From positions 5,887 through 13,660 of the forward strand of contig CAZNIQ010000019.1 in NCBI GenBank assembly GCA_964573185.1: DNA of 7,774 bases, written 5' to 3'. A program made the position numbers and the translations under genes. The notes under the pieces were generated by a model. That model was not told the origin of the DNA. It was given only the letters and a program-made list of their open reading frames with translations, and searched no databases. Source of the DNA: Candidatus Woesearchaeota archaeon (lineage in GTDB: Archaea > Nanobdellota > Nanobdellia > Nanobdellales > CAZNIQ01). Below are positions 1,149-7,774 of this stretch, piece after piece (position 1 is the stretch's first letter; every line of letters begins with the position of its first letter).

Positions 1149-1811
1149 ATGTACTTTGGATCTAATGATGAATTAGTAGATTACTTAAAAGAATTAGGAT
1201 TTATAAGGTCTAAAAGAGTTGAACAAGCTTTTAGAGCAGTAGATCGTAAGGATTTTGTTCCTGATGAATACAAGGAAATGGCTTATTTTGATAAAGTAAT
1301 TCCTATCGGTTATGGTCAAACAACATCTCAGCCATCTTTAATAGCCCAAATGCTAGAAGAATTAGATATAAAACCCGGAATGAAAGTTTTAGAAATAGGA
1401 ACTGGTTCTGGATATGTTACTGCTTTATTATCCTATTTGGTTGGTCCTGAAGGAAAAGTTATTTCTATAGAAAGAATACCTGAATTAGCTGAATTTGCTA
1501 AGAGAAATTTATCTAAATATCCTTTTACAAAAAATGTCGAGATTATTGTTGGAGATGGTACATTAGGATATCCAAAAGAAGCCCCTTACGATAGAATATA
1601 TGTTGGAGCTGCCGCCCCAGAAATTCCAAAACCGTTATTATGGCAATTAAAGGAAAATGGGATAATGATAATTCCAGTAGGTCCAGAATATGGACAAACT
1701 CTATATAAAATTATAAAGAAAAAAGATAAAATTGAAAAAATACCGATAGAGGATGTTATTTTTGTTCCTTTAATTGGGAAATATGGATATGATGAAGAGG
1801 AATGGAAATGA
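1149..1811 (+). CDS. pcm: protein-L-isoaspartate (D-aspartate) O-methyltransferase
   Basis: ATG at 1149, TGA at 1809-1811, 220 aa. Canonical PIMT blocks are present: GYGQTTSQPSLIAQMLE, the SAM motif VLEIGTGSGYVTALL, DRIYVGAAAPEIP, and MIIPVG...FVPL. Confidence 0.95.
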   Translation: MYFGSNDELVDYLKELGFIRSKRVEQAFRAVDRKDFVPDEYKEMAYFDKVIPIGYGQTTSQPSLIAQMLEELDIKPGMKVLEIGTGSGYVTALLSYLVGPEGKVISIERIPELAEFAKRNLSKYPFTKNVEIIVGDGTLGYPKEAPYDRIYVGAAAPEIPKPLLWQLKENGIMIIPVGPEYGQTLYKIIKKKDKIEKIPIEDVIFVPLIGKYGYDEEEWK

Positions 1812-2933
1812 TTATAGTAGCTCTATTTTTGGTATTCTCCTCTCTTTTTCTTCTTTAAACCTCTCTAACTGTTCTTCTAGTACTTCTAAAGCATTTCTTA
1901 AAGCATTATATAATTCCCAACCTTCATCTTGTGCATAAAACCTTCCTTTCTCGGAGAACAATCTTATTCTTACAGTATAAAATCTCATTGTATTATCCTG
2001 CTCAACTACTTCTTTTACTCTCTTAATATAAACATAAACTTGAATGTAATTTCCTAATATGCTCTTAAATCTTCTTATTATTTTTCTTTCAATAACGGTC
2101 CTTATCCATTCTTTATCGATTTCGTCCAACACTATATTTACTGGGTGTATTATTATTTCAACTTCTTTCTTTTTCTCAAAGGCTATTTCCTCTAAAATAT
2201 CTTTTCTAGTAATGATACCAACCAAATTGTCATTCTCGTCAACAACAGGTAAACCAGAGATATTCTTTTCTAACATTATTTCAATCGCTTTTTTAACAGG
2301 CTCATCATATCTTATTGTTATAACTGGAGAAGTCATTATTCCCTCCACGGGTAATGCTAATGAAGGATAATGTTCAGATCTTTCCCCAAACTCCGGTTTT
2401 TCTTTTGGATAAACTAATTTTTCAATTATATCTCTTGCAGTAATAATTCCTACAACCTTTTTACCCTCAACAATTGGTATTCTAGATATGTGCTTCTTTC
2501 TCATAATGCTAATAGCTTTTGCAACCTTCGCTTTTGGTGGTAAAGTAATAACATCCTCAACCATCAAATCCGCAACTAAAAGTTTAATTTTGTCTTTATA
2601 TAACTCTAACAGTTTTGAAGAGTTTACTATGCCCTCTATTTTTTCTTCAGTTCCTATAGGTACTATTCTTGATCCGGATTCTATCATTTTCTTAGCAATT
2701 CTTACCGGATTTACTTCTTTTTCTGGATGCAATCTGATAGTGATTTTCTCTACTTTCATTTCTGGATCCATTCTAGTTCTTATTATTGTTTTTTCATTAG
2801 CAACCCCATAATATTTTCCTTTATCCAAAACAACAACTCCTTCTATATATGGATCCTCTCTAAATATTCCTACTAATTTGGATATAGTTTCGTCCTTTTC
2901 TATGGTAGGATAATTCCTAATTACGATATCCAT
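1812..2933 (-). CDS. four-CBS-domain protein with a non-CBS C-terminal domain (HPF/RaiA-like)
   Basis: ATG is the complement of 2931-2933 and TAA the complement of 1812-1814; 373 aa. Four CBS repeats lie at about aa 1-56, 58-114, 118-173 and 194-252. Examples are RIPIVEGKKVVGIITARDIIEKL and GLPVVDENDNLVGIITRKDILEEI. A distinct C-terminal domain spans aa 257-373. Confidence 0.9.
   Translation of the reverse strand: MDIVIRNYPTIEKDETISKLVGIFREDPYIEGVVVLDKGKYYGVANEKTIIRTRMDPEMKVEKITIRLHPEKEVNPVRIAKKMIESGSRIVPIGTEEKIEGIVNSSKLLELYKDKIKLLVADLMVEDVITLPPKAKVAKAISIMRKKHISRIPIVEGKKVVGIITARDIIEKLVYPKEKPEFGERSEHYPSLALPVEGIMTSPVITIRYDEPVKKAIEIMLEKNISGLPVVDENDNLVGIITRKDILEEIAFEKKKEVEIIIHPVNIVLDEIDKEWIRTVIERKIIRRFKSILGNYIQVYVYIKRVKEVVEQDNTMRFYTVRIRLFSEKGRFYAQDEGWELYNALRNALEVLEEQLERFKEEKERRIPKIELL
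1815..2165 (-). other. C-terminal domain resembling the HPF/RaiA (ribosomal S30AE / sigma-54 modulation protein) fold
   Basis: The sequence is VEIIIHPVNIVLDEIDKEWIRTVIERKIIRRFKSILGNYIQVYVYIKRVKE...FYTVRIRLFSEKGRFYAQDEGWELYNALRNALEVLEEQLERFKEEK. It parallels E. coli HPF as I remember it: LNITGNNVEITEALREFVTAKFAKLEQYFDRINQVYVVLKVEK...[38 protein letters not shown]. This is a pattern match by eye only. Confidence 0.5.
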
Positions 2934-2942
2934 TTAGATTTT

Positions 2943-2954
2943 AAAAAAGAAAAA
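2943..2954 (-). terminator. oligo-T tract (TTTTTCTTTTTT on the minus strand) directly 3' of the 127-aa gene
   Basis: Archaeal termination typically uses T-runs. This one starts 2 nt after the TAA (2956-2958). It lies only ~10-20 nt upstream of the CBS gene start, so read-through or coupling cannot be excluded. T-runs are common in this composition. Confidence 0.25.
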
Positions 2955-2955
2955 T

Positions 2956-3339
2956 TTATTTCTTTTCTTCTTTGAGTTCCTTCTCTACTTTCTCAACTTC
3001 TCTTTCAATTTTAACCTCTAGTGATACTGCTTTCTCAAGCATTCTTCTTAAAATCCACAAATCTCTAGCTATAATGAATAATGCTAATAGTAATAACCAT
3101 GGTAAAACAAGATATCCTAAAAGGGATATTGTAAAAGCACCAAAGCTAACTATTTTAATCCCAAAAGTAGACAGAACTGCATTTAAAGACTGCTTTAATT
3201 GTCCAAGATTTGCTATTACATCAAAAGAAGCCAGAATTATTAATATGGAGAATATTGCCAAAAATGCTATTACTATGTCTTCTAAGAAAACTTCTATTTT
3301 CTCTAGTTTTCTTGCCAGATCTTTAAAGTTCTTGCACAT
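2956..3339 (-). CDS. small integral membrane protein (about 3 TM helices) with charged helical N- and C-termini; function unknown
   Basis: ATG is the complement of 3337-3339; 127 aa. Hydrophobic segments are IVIAFLAIFSILIILASF, IVSFGAFTISLLGYLV and LPWLLLLALFIIA. The tail is K/E-rich: EVKIEREVEKVEKELKEEKK. A weak resemblance to PsiE-like proteins is not supportable by eye. Confidence 0.75.
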   Translation of the reverse strand: MCKNFKDLARKLEKIEVFLEDIVIAFLAIFSILIILASFDVIANLGQLKQSLNAVLSTFGIKIVSFGAFTISLLGYLVLPWLLLLALFIIARDLWILRRMLEKAVSLEVKIEREVEKVEKELKEEKK

Positions 3340-3376: not shown

Positions 3377-4027
3377 TTAACTCTTAGTTTTACCGAATTC
3401 CTTTTCAGCCTCTTTTCTTAAGAGATCTCTTAACATTTCTAATATTGGTTTCTTCTCCTCTTTAGGTTTCTCAGGTTGTGATAACCACCAAATTATTGCT
3501 ATGAAGAATATCACAATTACTAGCATTGTTTGTACTGCAGGATCTTGAAGGTACTTGAATAGAACATCTAAAATACTTGCTGCTTCTTTTACCTCTTGAA
3601 CTTTGCTTTGGAACTTTAGGTAATAAAAACCTATAGCAAATATCGCTAACAAAGATAATGTAGGTATCCAAGCAGACCCTTGCCTAGCTCTTTCACCATA
3701 TATCAAACCACCTAAAATTAATATACCTAGATAAGCTATCATTAAGTAAAATACCAAGGAATACAAATCGGTAATATACCCTACCACAAATTCTAAAGCG
3801 TTTGCAAAGACGAATAATGCAAAGGCTAAAACTACTGTAATTAAACCCTTCAATTTTCTCTCTTTTGGAAAATCAATTCTATCTAATATTCCGTAAATAA
3901 CTGCTAAAGTTAGTAATACTGATGGAACAACTGTAAAGAAGCCCAAGGACTGTAGTGTCTGGAAAGCTTGTACTAATGTATTTGAAGACCCTATAGTATT
4001 TATCGTATTTACTATTTCTGCCGTCAT
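3377..4027 (-). CDS. multi-pass membrane protein, paralog C of a tandem family (WWLSQPEK motif plus charged amphipathic tail)
   Basis: The track lists 3377-4042 (221 aa), but the codon at 4042-4040 is TTG. The first ATG is at 4027-4025 (216 aa: MTAEIVNT...). It overlaps the upstream TGA as ATGA and has GGTGG 8 nt upstream. Either start is possible. The protein has N-terminal LGFFTVVPSVLLTLAVIYGILDR, several TM helices, and a last helix ending IIWWLSQPEKPKEEKK. Confidence 0.8.
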   Translation of the reverse strand: MTAEIVNTINTIGSSNTLVQAFQTLQSLGFFTVVPSVLLTLAVIYGILDRIDFPKERKLKGLITVVLAFALFVFANALEFVVGYITDLYSLVFYLMIAYLGILILGGLIYGERARQGSAWIPTLSLLAIFAIGFYYLKFQSKVQEVKEAASILDVLFKYLQDPAVQTMLVIVIFFIAIIWWLSQPEKPKEEKKPILEMLRDLLRKEAEKEFGKTKS

Positions 4028-4458
4028 TTTGACAACCACCAAATTAATATTAAGAACGTTCCCATCATAACAACCAATACTAGAACTCCGGGATCAATAG
4101 TAATACCTCCTACATTTGTTCCTTTTGGCAATAATGGTGCTATAAATAAGTAAGCTACAATAACTACGGATGCGAAGAATACTAGTGCTTTCAAAGCATC
4201 ACTTTTTACTCCCGGAAATATCAGTCCTGCTGCAATTATTAAAGCTAATAAAGTCAGTACATACATTGACATTTCGGGAATAGCATAAGAGAGCCACTGC
4301 CCTATATCTGTTCTTCCAAAAGCAAATAAAGCTATAGAAATTGCAATTAGCTTATTTACTTTTTCATTTTTGAAAATTCCAGATTGTTTTACAAGTACAT
4401 ATGATAATGTAAAGGCTAATAGTGATATGAAGAATTGATAAATAATGTTGACCTCCAT
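4024..4458 (-). CDS. multi-pass membrane protein, paralog B of the tandem family (ends LILIWWLSK)
   Basis: ATG is the complement of 4456-4458, 1 nt after the upstream TAA; 144 aa. It shares KLIAISIALFAFG with paralog A's SLVALSIALIAVG, and shares the terminal WWLSK. Confidence 0.8.
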   Translation of the reverse strand: MEVNIIYQFFISLLAFTLSYVLVKQSGIFKNEKVNKLIAISIALFAFGRTDIGQWLSYAIPEMSMYVLTLLALIIAAGLIFPGVKSDALKALVFFASVVIVAYLFIAPLLPKGTNVGGITIDPGVLVLVVMMGTFLILIWWLSK

Positions 4459-4459
4459 T

Positions 4460-5017
4460 TTAAGAACTTTGCTGTTGCTTTTTTTGTTCTTTTTTCTCAG
4501 GCTTGGTTAACCACCATACTACTATAAAGAATATTCCTAACATTACAAATCCAACTATCATCTCTAAAAGCTCTTGCGGTATAGAACCTACAGAAGAACC
4601 TACTGCACTGGGATTAAAGAAACCTAAAACATATAATAACCATAAGAATACTGCTGCAGCAGTTCCACCGCCTAATAAAGCTTTCCATCTTTTAGACATT
4701 TTCATTAATTCTTCATAAGATACTCCTCCGGTAAAACCAGCAACCATTATTATCCCAAAAATCGTTACAACAACTAATCCTATATATGGTAATATTATTT
4801 GTAATAATCTTAATATTTGATAAGAGCCTACTGCTATTAAAGCTATAGAAAGTGCTACTAGAGATGATAATTTTGTATCAACCTCCTTCCCTTTCTTAAA
4901 GAATTGTAATCTTATTAGAATTCCGTAAACTAAAGCCCAGATAAGTAATAAAGGAAGAAATATGTCAAAAAACCCAATATTTCTTAATACTTCAAGTATA
5001 GTTTCAAATGCTGACAT
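4460..5017 (-). CDS. multi-pass membrane protein, paralog A of the tandem family (about 5 TM helices, ends VVWWLTKPEKKEQKKQQQSS)
   Basis: ATG is the complement of 5015-5017; 185 aa. It has N-terminal IGFFDIFLPLLLIWALVYGILIR and five hydrophobic helices. The positive-inside rule suggests N-out/C-in topology. Confidence 0.85.
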   Translation of the reverse strand: MSAFETILEVLRNIGFFDIFLPLLLIWALVYGILIRLQFFKKGKEVDTKLSSLVALSIALIAVGSYQILRLLQIILPYIGLVVVTIFGIIMVAGFTGGVSYEELMKMSKRWKALLGGGTAAAVFLWLLYVLGFFNPSAVGSSVGSIPQELLEMIVGFVMLGIFFIVVWWLTKPEKKEQKKQQQSS

Positions 5018-5061: not shown

Positions 5062-6120
5062 ATGACGTTTGACATCATAGGGGATATAGCAATAATTAAA
5101 ATGAATACACCTGGGGATCCTTTAGAATTAGCTAAAAAAATTCTTGAAAAACATAAGCACGTTAAAACAGTGTTACTTCAGGTATCTAAAGTAGATATTC
5201 CATTTAGAGTTCCAAAATATAAATATCTTTTAGGAGAAAAGAAAACAGAGACTATACATAAAGAATTTGGTTTAAGATTTAAAGTAGATGTTACAAAATG
5301 CTATTATTCGCCAAGATTGGAAAATGAAAGAATGAGAATTGCTAAGCAGGTTAAAGAAAATGAAGAAGTTTTAGTAATGTTTTCCGGGGTAAATCCTTAT
5401 CCTATTTATATAGCTAAATTTGCAAAACCCAAAATAGTATACTCTATAGAAATTAATCCTTTTGCTGTGAGATATGGATTAGAAAATGAGAAATTAAATA
5501 AAGTAGATGATAAAATAAAAACCATATTAGGAGACGTAAGAGATGCTGTTCCTTTATTGGGTTTTCTTGATGATAAAGATGGAGTGGTATTTACAGAAGA
5601 ATGGTACCTTAAAGACGTTTTAGAATCAGGTTTAAAGCTAAACAAATTGGTTTTAAAAATAACAAATCCTGATCTTCTAGATTTAGCTTTCGAAATACCT
5701 TCAAAAGAGAAATATCTTTTAGTGAAGAAGGATATTAGACTTACTGATCTGGGAGAATATATATATAAAGCGGATGGAATAATAAAAGAGACAGAGAACT
5801 CATATATGATTGTGGATAAGAATAAAAATGTCTCTGAAGTAAAGAAATTTGAAAAGAAATTTGATAGAATTGTTATGCCTTTACCAAAGGAAGCAGATAC
5901 CTTTTTAGATGTAGCTATTCCAGTAATAAAAAATAATGGAATAATTCATTTATATCAATTCTTAAGAGAAGAGGAAATAGATAAAAAACCAAAAGATATT
6001 TTAGATTATTATTCAAAAAAACTTGGGTTTAAATACAAGATACTAAATGTTGTTAAATGTGGCGATATTGCGCCAAGGACATATAGAGTTTGTATAGACT
6101 TCCAAGTATATAAGGGATAG
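5062..6120 (+). CDS. trm5: Trm5-family (Met-10+ / TYW2-like) tRNA (guanine37-N1)-methyltransferase, D1-less, with a large internal insertion
   Basis: ATG at 5062, TAG at 6118-6120, 352 aa. It starts directly with the D2-domain motif FDIIGDIAII. Further blocks are FKVDVTKCYYSPRLENERMRIA, the SAM motif EVLVMFSGVNPYPIYIA, VYSIEINPFA, GDVRD, then DRIVMPLPKEADTFLDVA...GIIHLYQF. I cannot fully resolve Trm5 from Taw2/Taw22 subfamilies. SPRL..ER and the xLPK motif favour Trm5. Confidence 0.85.
   Translation: MTFDIIGDIAIIKMNTPGDPLELAKKILEKHKHVKTVLLQVSKVDIPFRVPKYKYLLGEKKTETIHKEFGLRFKVDVTKCYYSPRLENERMRIAKQVKENEEVLVMFSGVNPYPIYIAKFAKPKIVYSIEINPFAVRYGLENEKLNKVDDKIKTILGDVRDAVPLLGFLDDKDGVVFTEEWYLKDVLESGLKLNKLVLKITNPDLLDLAFEIPSKEKYLLVKKDIRLTDLGEYIYKADGIIKETENSYMIVDKNKNVSEVKKFEKKFDRIVMPLPKEADTFLDVAIPVIKNNGIIHLYQFLREEEIDKKPKDILDYYSKKLGFKYKILNVVKCGDIAPRTYRVCIDFQVYKG
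5551..5859 (+). other. about 100-aa lineage-specific insertion inside the Trm5 class-I methyltransferase domain
   Basis: GDVRDAVP (aa 157-164) and FDRIVMPLP (aa 267-275) are separated by ~100 aa (LLGFLDDKDGVVFTEEWYLKDVLESGLKLNKLVLKITNPD...VSEVKKFEKK). In the Trm5/Taw2 sequences I remember, these two blocks are only ~10-20 aa apart. Confidence 0.6.
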
Positions 6121-6245: not shown

Positions 6246-6314
6246 ATGAAATCCCTCAGAAAGGTAGGAGCCTTGTCAGCAGTGGGTGTATTAACTGTAG
6301 GTACAACTTTTGCA
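6246..6314 (+). other. Sec-type signal peptide of the S-layer precursor
   Basis: The basic n-region is MKSLRK and the hydrophobic core is VGALSAVGVLTVG. There is a small-residue site at TFA|L. The exact cleavage site is not determinable by eye. Confidence 0.5.
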
Positions 6315-7774
6315 TTAACCTTTGACGCATGGAAAGCAAAATTACCAGAAAAAGCACAATATTACAAAATAGTAGTAGGTGAGAAAGCAGCAGCAGCAGA
6401 TGTAATAGGTGCTGTAGAATTAGCTGCAGCATTACAACAAGTTTCTGTAAAAGAAAAGAACGTATCTGTACCAGTAGAAGGGGTTGTTTTGGAGAAAACA
6501 ACTGTAAAGTATGCTGGGGAAGTTCCATTATATAAGGAAACAGCAAAATTATACTTAGAAGATAGCATCTCAAAAGTCAAACCGAAGATAAATTATGAAA
6601 CTGGGGTAGTAGAAGGAGACAATGATAAATACAAATATAGAGTTGAATTATGGCCAGGTAACCAAGCTATAATAACATTTGAAGACAAACCAGACACAGA
6701 TGAAAAAGATCCTGTTGTAATGATAAAAGGTGGTACTAATGGTGATCAACCAATATTTACCGTAAAAGTAAAATTTGAAACAGGATCTTACCTCAACTTA
6801 ACTGATGCCAAAGGCGAGGAGATAAAAATATTAGGAAAGACATTTTACTTGGATCAAGATGATGATGGAAATGTTGTATTAAGATCTGCAGCCTTAAAAG
6901 TAACATTAAATGCTGGAGAATCTACAGAATTTGAAGGAAAAACAATAAAATTATTAGATATTGTAAAACAGGGCAGTACCTATTATGTAAAGGTATCTGT
7001 AGATGGCAAAACGGCAACAATAAAGGTTGGAGATGACGATGAAGTTAATGGGATTTATATATATGTTAAAGGAGCATATGTATCTGAATTAGAAGAAGGT
7101 AAAGGTTATGCAGAATTAGTATTGGGAGGTAAAAAAGTAGTACTAAAAGATGGAGATGGAATTGAAGTAAATGGAGAATTAGATAAAAGAATAATACCAA
7201 AAATTGACAAGGATTCTAATGGTAAGATAAAAGAAATAGATTTCGATGTCTATGTATCAGATGATTCTGACAAAAACTATATAGAGGCGGGAAAAGAGTT
7301 TACTCCAGTATTGTTTGATACAATAAAGTTAGTATTTGCACCTGTAGATTTAAAGACTGGACAAAAAGTAGAATTAATACCATCTGGAGACAAAGAATAT
7401 AGGTTAAAAATAGTTGACTGGAGAGGAAAGAGCAAGACGTTGACAATCGCCAAATTAGGAAGCAATGGCAATGTAACTATGCTAGAAGATACAGATAAAG
7501 TAGTTGGAACAATAATAGATGTAGGCGGTGATGTTAGTACAGCAGCAAATAGATTTGCTGTGGATGAAAAAGAGTATTTTGCAGTATTTGACGAACAAAC
7601 AAAAGAATCCTACTTATATGAAGTTGAAGATATAAGTATAGATACAGATAACAATAAGGCTACTGTAACCCTAAAAGATGTGATTTCCGGCGATACTGTA
7701 AAGTTAGAAGACATTCCATATGGAGACGGAAGTCGTACAGAAACTTGGGATGTAGGACACTTTGTGTTTAAAGT
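6246..7774 (+). CDS. S-layer (surface layer) protein precursor, N-terminal 509 codons; continues beyond the right edge
   Basis: Missing from the track because there is no stop in the window. I read it from the ATG at 6246 to 7774 without a stop. It begins with the signal peptide MKSLRKVGALSAVGVLTVGTTFA. That is followed by YYKIVVGEKAAAADVIGAVELAAAL, the VVVG..AA..DV.GA..IAAAL signature of the Methanococcales/Thermococcales-type S-layer N-terminal domain. Beta-rich D/E/K/G/V repeats follow (KILGKTFYLDQDDDGNVVL, AELVLGGKKVVLKDGDGIEVNG). Purine-rich codon usage is consistent with the other genes. Confidence 0.8.
   Translation, partial: MKSLRKVGALSAVGVLTVGTTFALTFDAWKAKLPEKAQYYKIVVGEKAAAADVIGAVELAAALQQVSVKEKNVSVPVEGVVLEKTTVKYAGEVPLYKETAKLYLEDSISKVKPKINYETGVVEGDNDKYKYRVELWPGNQAIITFEDKPDTDEKDPVVMIKGGTNGDQPIFTVKVKFETGSYLNLTDAKGEEIKILGKTFYLDQDDDGNVVLRSAALKVTLNAGESTEFEGKTIKLLDIVKQGSTYYVKVSVDGKTATIKVGDDDEVNGIYIYVKGAYVSELEEGKGYAELVLGGKKVVLKDGDGIEVNGELDKRIIPKIDKDSNGKIKEIDFDVYVSDDSDKNYIEAGKEFTPVLFDTIKLVFAPVDLKTGQKVELIPSGDKEYRLKIVDWRGKSKTLTIAKLGSNGNVTMLEDTDKVVGTIIDVGGDVSTAANRFAVDEKEYFAVFDEQTKESYLYEVEDISIDTDNNKATVTLKDVISGDTVKLEDIPYGDGSRTETWDVGHFVFK

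Follow-up and report, generated by a model that had tools for sequence, protein, structure and literature searches.

The window analysed here, a 7,774-nucleotide stretch of contig CAZNIQ010000019.1, encodes on its minus strand a 373-amino acid protein in which four tandem CBS domains precede a C-terminal domain resembling the ribosome hibernation factors HPF and RaiA (Table 1). The gene is very probably orthologous to HibA/AHA, a ribosome hibernation factor of archaea, and, by analogy with the solved homologs, its product would act by the same mechanism. The feature is real, had been correctly read, and is an ordinary member of an already published and reportedly widespread family. An earlier interpretation made without database searches (the sequence-only reading) had delimited the open reading frame (ORF), assigned four CBS repeats to residues 1-252 and set apart a non-CBS tail. 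The ORF was recovered with exactly these limits as a single uninterrupted frame, and the Pfam scan returned the same architecture, with the tail domain at residues ~257-366. The domain architecture, the fold and the full-length homology were all computed for this protein, as was the degree to which its loop and nucleotide motifs are conserved.

Homology to characterised hibernation factors

Comparison of the full protein against the Protein Data Bank (PDB) using phmmer identified 9sr9_H, the HibA protein of Pyrococcus abyssi (E = 4.2e-44), with residues 3-366 of the window protein aligned colinearly to residues 9-377. This chain H, in 9SR9 and seven sister entries, carries the depositor label 'Dehydrogenase'; the data availability statement of the HibA paper identifies these entries with P. 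abyssi HibA bound to the 70S ribosome, as solved by cryo-electron microscopy (cryo-EM) (PMC13324472). The role in ribosome dormancy put forward in the sequence-only reading is thus upheld by homology, the colinear full-length match being to a protein solved on the hibernating 70S ribosome. A weaker match, which also spans both modules, was obtained for the archaeal CBS-domain chain 9l96_a (406 amino acids; E = 1.1e-26 for the full protein). It is chain a of entries 9l96, 9l98, 9l9c and 9l9v and is, after HibA, another CBS-domain protein of the PDB whose match to the window protein includes the HPF-like tail; a literature search for the PDB code 9L96 found no source paper.

An exhaustive HMMER search of 1.84 billion representative proteins with the tail gave 23 matches at E<=1e-3, of which seventeen are proteins of 363-403 amino acids with the match at the C-terminus, i.e. 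with the same architecture. In an alignment of these tail matches with the window protein, CBS domains are present in 19/24 and PF02482 in 17/24 sequences. Since it recurs among the tail matches, the combination of four CBS domains with an HPF-like domain can be considered a family trait rather than an artefact of a local fusion. With the tail as sole query, a word-indexed protein search gave no match, which reflects a limitation of the index, given the 23 matches found by the exhaustive search.

The family has been described independently under two names. HibA was reported by Madru et al. (bioRxiv, October 2025; Nat Commun, April 2026; PMC13324472) for P. abyssi Pab0961 (UniProt Q9UYR4; PDB 9SR9-9SRF and 9T7H), and AHA by Souza et al. 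(bioRxiv, February 2026; PMC12934967) for Haloferax volcanii HVO_2384. According to the HibA and AHA papers, the family occurs in ~47 % of archaeal genomes, and in 2,723/6,968 GTDB species in 17 phyla. The sequence-only reading considered an archaeal CBS-HPF chimera to be novel, a claim which is out of date, as exactly this fusion was published as HibA and AHA in 2025-2026; its tentative mention of recent reports on archaeal CBS-domain dormancy factors was accurate and corresponds to these papers. Publications on Sri/ARC and Dri, related factors made up of CBS domains only, date from the same time.

HibA has been observed by cryo-EM on hibernating 70S ribosomes in three conformations (PMC13324472). 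Its HPF-like domain sits in the 30S subunit's mRNA/tRNA channel, much as bacterial HPF does, and the CBS tetrad takes one of three alternative positions on the 50S subunit, at the peptidyl-transferase centre (PTC), uL5 or the L1 stalk, with the CBS3 loop (residues 190-207) inserting into the PTC (PMC13324472). The protein inhibits in vitro translation, for which the C-terminal domain is required, and preserves the 70S pools, while deleting hibA from Thermococcus barophilus doubles the regrowth lag and lowers stationary-phase 70S ribosomes by ~60 % (PMC13324472). The protein aSBDS is reported to co-occupy HibA-bound P. abyssi ribosomes (PMC13324472). For AHA, a knockout phenotype is reported (PMC12934967).

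The HPF/RaiA-like C-terminal domain

The sequence-only reading had likened the tail to HPF/YfiA on the basis of its predicted secondary structure order and of two residue pairings with Escherichia coli HPF. The Pfam family PF02482 (Ribosomal_S30AE; Sigma-54 modulation protein/S30EA) was found at residues 275-362 of the full protein (28.3 bits), and again when the 117-residue tail was scanned alone (32.4 bits, E = 1.5e-7), in both cases above the gathering cut-off of 23.7 bits. A profile of the tail searched against the PDB retrieved HibA (3.1e-23), followed by 9l96_a (4.7e-14) and then, from 2.5e-4 on, chains of bacterial HPF. Both pairings were reproduced when the family tail alignment was compared by hhalign with an E. 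coli HPF sequence: NYIQVYVYIKRVK is paired with RINQVYVVLKVEK, and EKGRFYAQDEGWELYNALRNALEVLEEQLERFKEE is set against a 35-residue stretch of E. coli HPF (E = 9.5e-5 over 87 columns). An independent PDB profile search matched residues 52-91 of the 95-residue HPF chain 6h4n_x, the same stretch as is paired by hhalign.

A full-length AlphaFold2 model, built on a 15-sequence alignment of full-length homologs (A1), shows two Bateman modules (mean predicted local distance difference test score, pLDDT, 86.4; predicted template modelling score 0.82) and the expected β-α-β-β-β-α order in the tail, with strands at residues 258-265, 297-311, 314-327 and 331-339 and helices at 271-293 and 341-366. A separate model of residues 254-373 reached a pLDDT of 90.1. 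When this tail model was compared with the PDB using Foldseek, ranks 1 to 28 were all HPF, RaiA, pY or PSRP1 structures (E = 3.9e-6 to 2.5e-3; template modelling scores 0.5-0.75). These include pY/PSRP1 of spinach and Chlamydomonas, RaiA/YfiA, and the HPF proteins of Staphylococcus aureus, Listeria, E. coli, Vibrio, Thermus and Mycobacterium. Because the Pfam threshold is passed, the profile reaches bacterial HPFs and the top 28 structural matches belong to one family, the tail is, as judged from its sequence and modelled structure, an HPF/RaiA-fold domain.

In comparison with E. coli HPF, the first helix of the domain is longer and the β2-β3 hairpin extended, in line with the archaeal insertions reported for HibA. 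The NCBIfam model TIGR00741 (yfiA/HPF) scored 27.0 bits with the full protein and 31.5 bits with the tail alone, against an equivalog cut-off of 40.9. At the sequence level, the domain is homologous to bacterial HPF yet lies outside the bacterial equivalog, being fused to a CBS tetrad and not part of a standalone protein of ~95-190 amino acids. A role for the terminal IPKIELL segment that follows the domain, if it has one, would have to be inferred.

The CBS tetrad, nucleotide motifs and CBS3 loop

Pfam detected four CBS stretches in the N-terminal part of the protein (E = 3.1e-44), the last at residues 196-251. Their arrangement in two Bateman modules forming a disk, as in HibA and AHA, is apparent from the Pfam matches, the AlphaFold2 model and the superposition of the tetrad on known structures. 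Foldseek comparison of the full-length model matched CBS tetrads, headed by Methanosarcina SriA/B and SriD and Pyrobaculum Dri, all in their ribosome-bound form, with MJ1225 and AMPK-gamma also among the matches.

The canonical ribose-binding motif GhhTxxD was found only in CBS3 (G162-IIT-AR-D168) and CBS4 (G239-IIT-RK-D245), where G162, D168, G239, T242 and D245 are invariant in alignment A1, whereas the corresponding motifs of CBS1 (GVANEKT, residues 43-49) and CBS2 (GIVNSSK, residues 101-107) are degenerate as read from the sequence. This distribution of intact and degenerate motifs agrees with where HibA and AHA have their nucleotide sites. The CBS module of HibA binds adenosine mono-, di- and triphosphate (AMP, ADP and ATP) with dissociation constants of 12, 65 and 113 uM, respectively, at the CBS3/CBS4 interface (PMC13324472), and two AMP molecules are bound at the CBS3/CBS4 junction in the AHA-70S structure (PMC12934967). 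By analogy, the CBS3/CBS4 pair of the window protein most likely binds AMP, ADP or ATP.

CBS3 further carries a long loop insertion, PKEKPEFGERSEHYPSLALP, which is paired in the phmmer alignment with the HibA segment KPRFKAQYGELAGEKIPPFSMKL and corresponds to what is called the 'PTC loop' in HibA and 'loop 3' in AHA. Its residue G183 is invariant in A1, and its pLDDT of 46-65 is low, as is usual for flexible loops.

Proposed mechanism

On the model of HibA and AHA, the C-terminal HPF/RaiA-like domain would bind in the 30S subunit's mRNA/tRNA channel, at the decoding centre, under stress or in stationary phase, and the N-terminal four-CBS disk would bind the 50S subunit over the tRNA sites, where the long CBS3 loop could insert into the PTC. 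Because a single polypeptide would hold both subunits, the inactive 70S ribosome is proposed to stay assembled, with mRNA and tRNA binding blocked and the rRNA shielded from degradation. A coupling of energy charge to ribosome dormancy, the central idea of the sequence-only reading, is a hypothesis even where homologs have been characterised, as is the notion that nucleotides control how the factor loads onto the ribosome or leaves it; ATP-triggered release has been claimed for the CBS-only ARC system.

Comparison with known systems

HibA shares with the window protein the long CBS3 loop, the GhhTxxD motifs in CBS3 and CBS4 and the extended β2-β3 hairpin. The window protein is nineteen residues shorter (373 versus 392), with a shorter C-terminal tail, and its hairpin is three residues longer; it is also distant from HibA in sequence, and its low-GC, probably Nanobdellota-like host differs from the Thermococcales in which HibA was characterised. 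Likened by its description, the haloarchaeal ortholog AHA similarly places its CBS tetrad on the 50S subunit, with loop 3 in the PTC, and its HPF domain on the 30S subunit.

Bacterial and plastid HPF, RaiA (YfiA, pY), long HPF and PSRP1 have the fold of the tail domain in common and, by inference, the binding site on the 30S subunit. They have no CBS module, bacterial long HPF having a C-terminal dimerisation domain instead, and lack the archaeal insertions, namely the longer α1 and β2-β3 hairpin. The Dri proteins of the Thermoproteota and SriA-D/ARC-A/P of the Methanosarcinales have a homologous CBS tetrad which can be superposed on that of the window protein (Foldseek E = 4.5e-21 to 1.3e-14), and they too occupy the tRNA sites of dormant ribosomes. 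Unlike the window protein, in which an HPF/RaiA-like domain is present, they consist of CBS tetrads only, two within one protein in Dri and standalone tetrads acting in pairs in Sri/ARC. AMPK gamma and MJ1225 likewise form a disk of four CBS domains whose second Bateman module holds adenine-nucleotide sites, but are kinase regulators or orphan proteins without a ribosome-binding domain.

Source organism and closest relatives

The window corresponds to the metagenome contig k141_104715 of the ENA assembly ERZ27262635. The closest relative of the window protein, and the sole close one, is 92 % identical and is encoded in the metagenome-assembled genome (MAG) GCA_054017035.1 (P0001), and is also present in a Logan assembly; this is followed by P0123 (52 % identity over the full length) and by proteins with ~33 % identity. 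Comparison of the full protein with a collection of genome contigs, in which neither the genome of the window nor the sister MAG turned up, matched only an unrelated bacterial CBS protein. The sister contig (L002) encodes Cdc6/Orc1, the PolD small subunit, Rrp4, Rrp41 and RadA, on the basis of which an archaeal origin of the window contig is argued. The RadA protein shares 66-69 % identity with sequences assigned by name to Nanoarchaeota, Nanopusillaceae and Nanobdella. As these are its best named relatives, and the low G+C content of the window (27-33 %) fits, the source is probably an uncultivated Nanobdellota-like DPANN archaeon, an assignment made from this one marker and, as with HibA and AHA, to an archaeal host.

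Evaluation of the ortholog assignment

Several observations weigh against the assignment to HibA/AHA. The equivalog cut-off for bacterial HPF is not reached, as would be expected for a divergent archaeal branch. Identity to the characterised HibA is low and the match relies on hidden Markov model scores; the tail consensus is 19-32 % identical to the more distant family members in a further alignment (A2). The copy of the PDB used with Foldseek ends at 2026-04-08, before the HibA entries (9SR*) were released, and returned none of them; the comparison with HibA itself is at the level of sequence. In addition, binding of HibA to ribosomes in vitro is unchanged by AMP or ATP, and nucleotide regulation is unproven in P. 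abyssi (PMC13324472). For the source organism, the binding of ribosomes and nucleotides by the protein and its role in physiology are drawn from the homologs by analogy.

The window gene could alternatively be a repurposed or degenerating HibA homolog in a DPANN symbiont with a reduced genome, which has kept the fold and perhaps acts on the 30S subunit only, in the manner of standalone HPF/RaiA-like proteins. Such proteins occur mostly in DPANN and Nitrososphaerales (PMC13324472), and both the Nanobdellota-like lineage suggested by RadA and the distance to the nearest relatives beyond the sister protein are compatible with this scenario. However, the frame is uninterrupted, conservation extends to both modules, to the PTC loop and to the CBS3/CBS4 motifs, and the protein is 92 % identical across two independent assemblies and 52 % identical over its full length to that of a third lineage. 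From these identities purifying selection on the whole protein is argued, and this scenario is regarded as very unlikely.

It is extremely unlikely that the protein is instead a CBS-tetrad regulator of a non-ribosomal target, such as a transcription factor of the HhpR/CM-3 type or a metabolic sensor of the AMPK-gamma/MJ1225 type, with a C-terminal domain that serves for dimerisation or partner binding only. The tetrad does superpose not only on the ribosome-bound factors but also on MJ1225 and AMPK-gamma, and NCBIfam returns a sub-threshold HhpR match (44.9 bits against a cut-off of 520) along with many generic CBS matches. By contrast, the tail is specifically HPF/RaiA-like in sequence and fold, the alignment with HibA is colinear across both modules and includes the PTC loop, and none of the listed CBS-tetrad matches of the 280-residue class (e.g. 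MJ1225) reaches into the tail. The notion that a small α/β domain with a biased, K/E/I-rich composition resembles HPF by chance, which might draw on the 30 % G+C genome, the lysine- and glutamate-rich protein and the hhalign probability of 58.7 % against the single E. coli HPF sequence, has next to no probability and is refuted by the Pfam threshold, the single family occupying the top 28 Foldseek ranks and the profile that finds HibA (3e-23) and many bacterial HPFs.

Genomic context of hibA

Table 1. Coordinates of hibA, its domains and the other features of the window
Feature	Position	Strand	Details or basis
hibA/AHA-family gene	1812..2933	-	373 amino acids and stop codon; ATG start; one intact ORF
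Short C-terminal tail (residues 367-373, IPKIELL) and stop codon	1812..1835	-	pLDDT <50 for residues 368-373
HPF/RaiA-like domain	1836..2165	-	PF02482; AlphaFold2 tail model; Foldseek; tail profile
Bateman module 2 (CBS3 + CBS4, residues ~119-252)	2178..2579	-	Canonical GhhTxxD motifs; predicted adenine-nucleotide site
Long CBS3 loop (residues ~176-195)	2349..2408	-	Counterpart of HibA 'PTC loop' / AHA 'loop 3'
Bateman module 1 (CBS1 + CBS2, residues ~1-115)	2589..2933	-	Pfam and AlphaFold2 secondary structure; boundaries approximate
22-nucleotide A/T-rich spacer and last bases of the upstream membrane-protein ORF (AAATAAATTTTTCTTTTTTAAAATCTAA)	2934..2960	-	Read from the sequence
Fourth membrane-protein ORF, nearest to hibA	2956-3339	-	127 amino acids; no significant Pfam match
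Three tandem paralogous small membrane proteins	3377-5017	-	185, 144 and 221 amino acids; 30-35 % identical
Protein-L-isoaspartate O-methyltransferase gene	1149-1811	+	Convergent with hibA
Trm5b/TYW2-type tRNA methyltransferase homolog	5062-6120	+	E = 2.4e-48 to PDB 5yac
S-layer-like ORF, running off the right end	~6246-7774 (L001 3-1529)	+	>509 amino acids; PF05124, marginal
PAPS-reductase-domain protein, running off the left end	~28-1120 (L001 6655-7746)	-	PF01507, E = 2.7e-45

Four ORFs for membrane proteins lie directly upstream of hibA on the same strand, separated by gaps of 22 and 37 nucleotides or overlapping. Three are paralogs that share an N-terminal segment resembling GFFxxxxPxLLxxAxxYGIL and a C-terminal WWL(S/T)(K/Q)PEK motif, and none of the four gave a significant match in the Pfam scan. 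No Shine-Dalgarno motif is visible in the 22-nucleotide spacer preceding hibA. The spacer in the sister MAG is also A/T-rich, yet differs in sequence, with a gap of eight nucleotides. It is equally possible that the spacer represents a TATA-like promoter with a leaderless transcript, or a mere operon junction. Scans for sigma-70 promoters and intrinsic terminators, using models unsuited to archaea, gave no more sites than in shuffled sequence, and Rfam and tRNA scans of the window returned nothing.

The arrangement of membrane-protein cluster and hibA is kept in the contig of the 92 %-identical sister MAG, the single genome in which this is so. An operon of hibA with membrane proteins conserved as a feature of the family was considered and rejected, as the three other HibA loci (L005, L006 and L008) have different neighbours. 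These include uS19 and RNA polymerase subunit L at one locus and Cdc48, Hsp20 and Cpn10/Cpn60 at another. The third has an rRNA adenine dimethylase, and genes for SBDS, the proteasome and the exosome in the vicinity. It is very doubtful that hibA closes a transcription unit of five genes specific to this lineage, with the four membrane-protein genes before it. If it were co-transcribed with them, an obligate ectosymbiont might link ribosome hibernation to a module of the envelope or of host contact, and not to adenylate levels alone.

Immediately downstream, the protein-L-isoaspartate O-methyltransferase gene abuts the hibA stop codon with zero intergenic bases. Synteny with the sister contig breaks at this point, where L002 (11159-13945) encodes a helix-turn-helix protein followed by Rrp4 and Rrp41. 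In two distant lineages (L008 1-2296 and L002 11615-13945), no more than a few kb separate hibA from the exosome/proteasome/SBDS superoperon, with Rrp4 and Rrp41 near hibA in both and SBDS and the proteasome alpha subunit additionally in L008. This proximity to SBDS and exosome genes could be meaningful or coincidental. In L006 (3110-9166), the HibA homolog P0003 is flanked by Cdc48/Hsp20 upstream and Cpn10/Cpn60 (GroES/GroEL-type) downstream, an unusual stress and chaperone setting for an archaeal MAG.

Elsewhere in the window, the Trm5b/TYW2-type homolog lacks the N-terminal ~98 residues of Trm5b and has an insertion of ~100 amino acids (residues 162-261) in the methyltransferase domain, at residue 257 of 5yac; the corresponding gene of the sister MAG encodes a protein of the same length (353 amino acids). 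The large S-layer-like ORF matches PF05124 marginally (25.2 bits against a gathering cut-off of 23.9), and it may encode the envelope protein of the lineage. No family match was found for the N-terminal ~200 amino acids of the 3'-phosphoadenosine-5'-phosphosulfate (PAPS) reductase-domain protein.

Implications

In 2025-2026, four groups reported that this family is the principal system by which archaeal ribosomes hibernate. The sequence-only reading, made without tools, rediscovered its known architecture, which validates this way of reading a sequence and adds no new biology. Whether the AMP/ATP ratio governs how the factor loads onto the ribosome or leaves it is a family-wide question, which the window sequence does not advance. 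The gain is in annotation, as the ORF and its relatives, which are unnamed or labelled 'CBS domain-containing protein', can be named HibA/AHA-family ribosome hibernation factors. Furthermore, the window extends the set of full-length HibA proteins to a lineage that is probably DPANN and Nanobdellota-like, a group for which the literature stresses standalone HPF/RaiA-like proteins.

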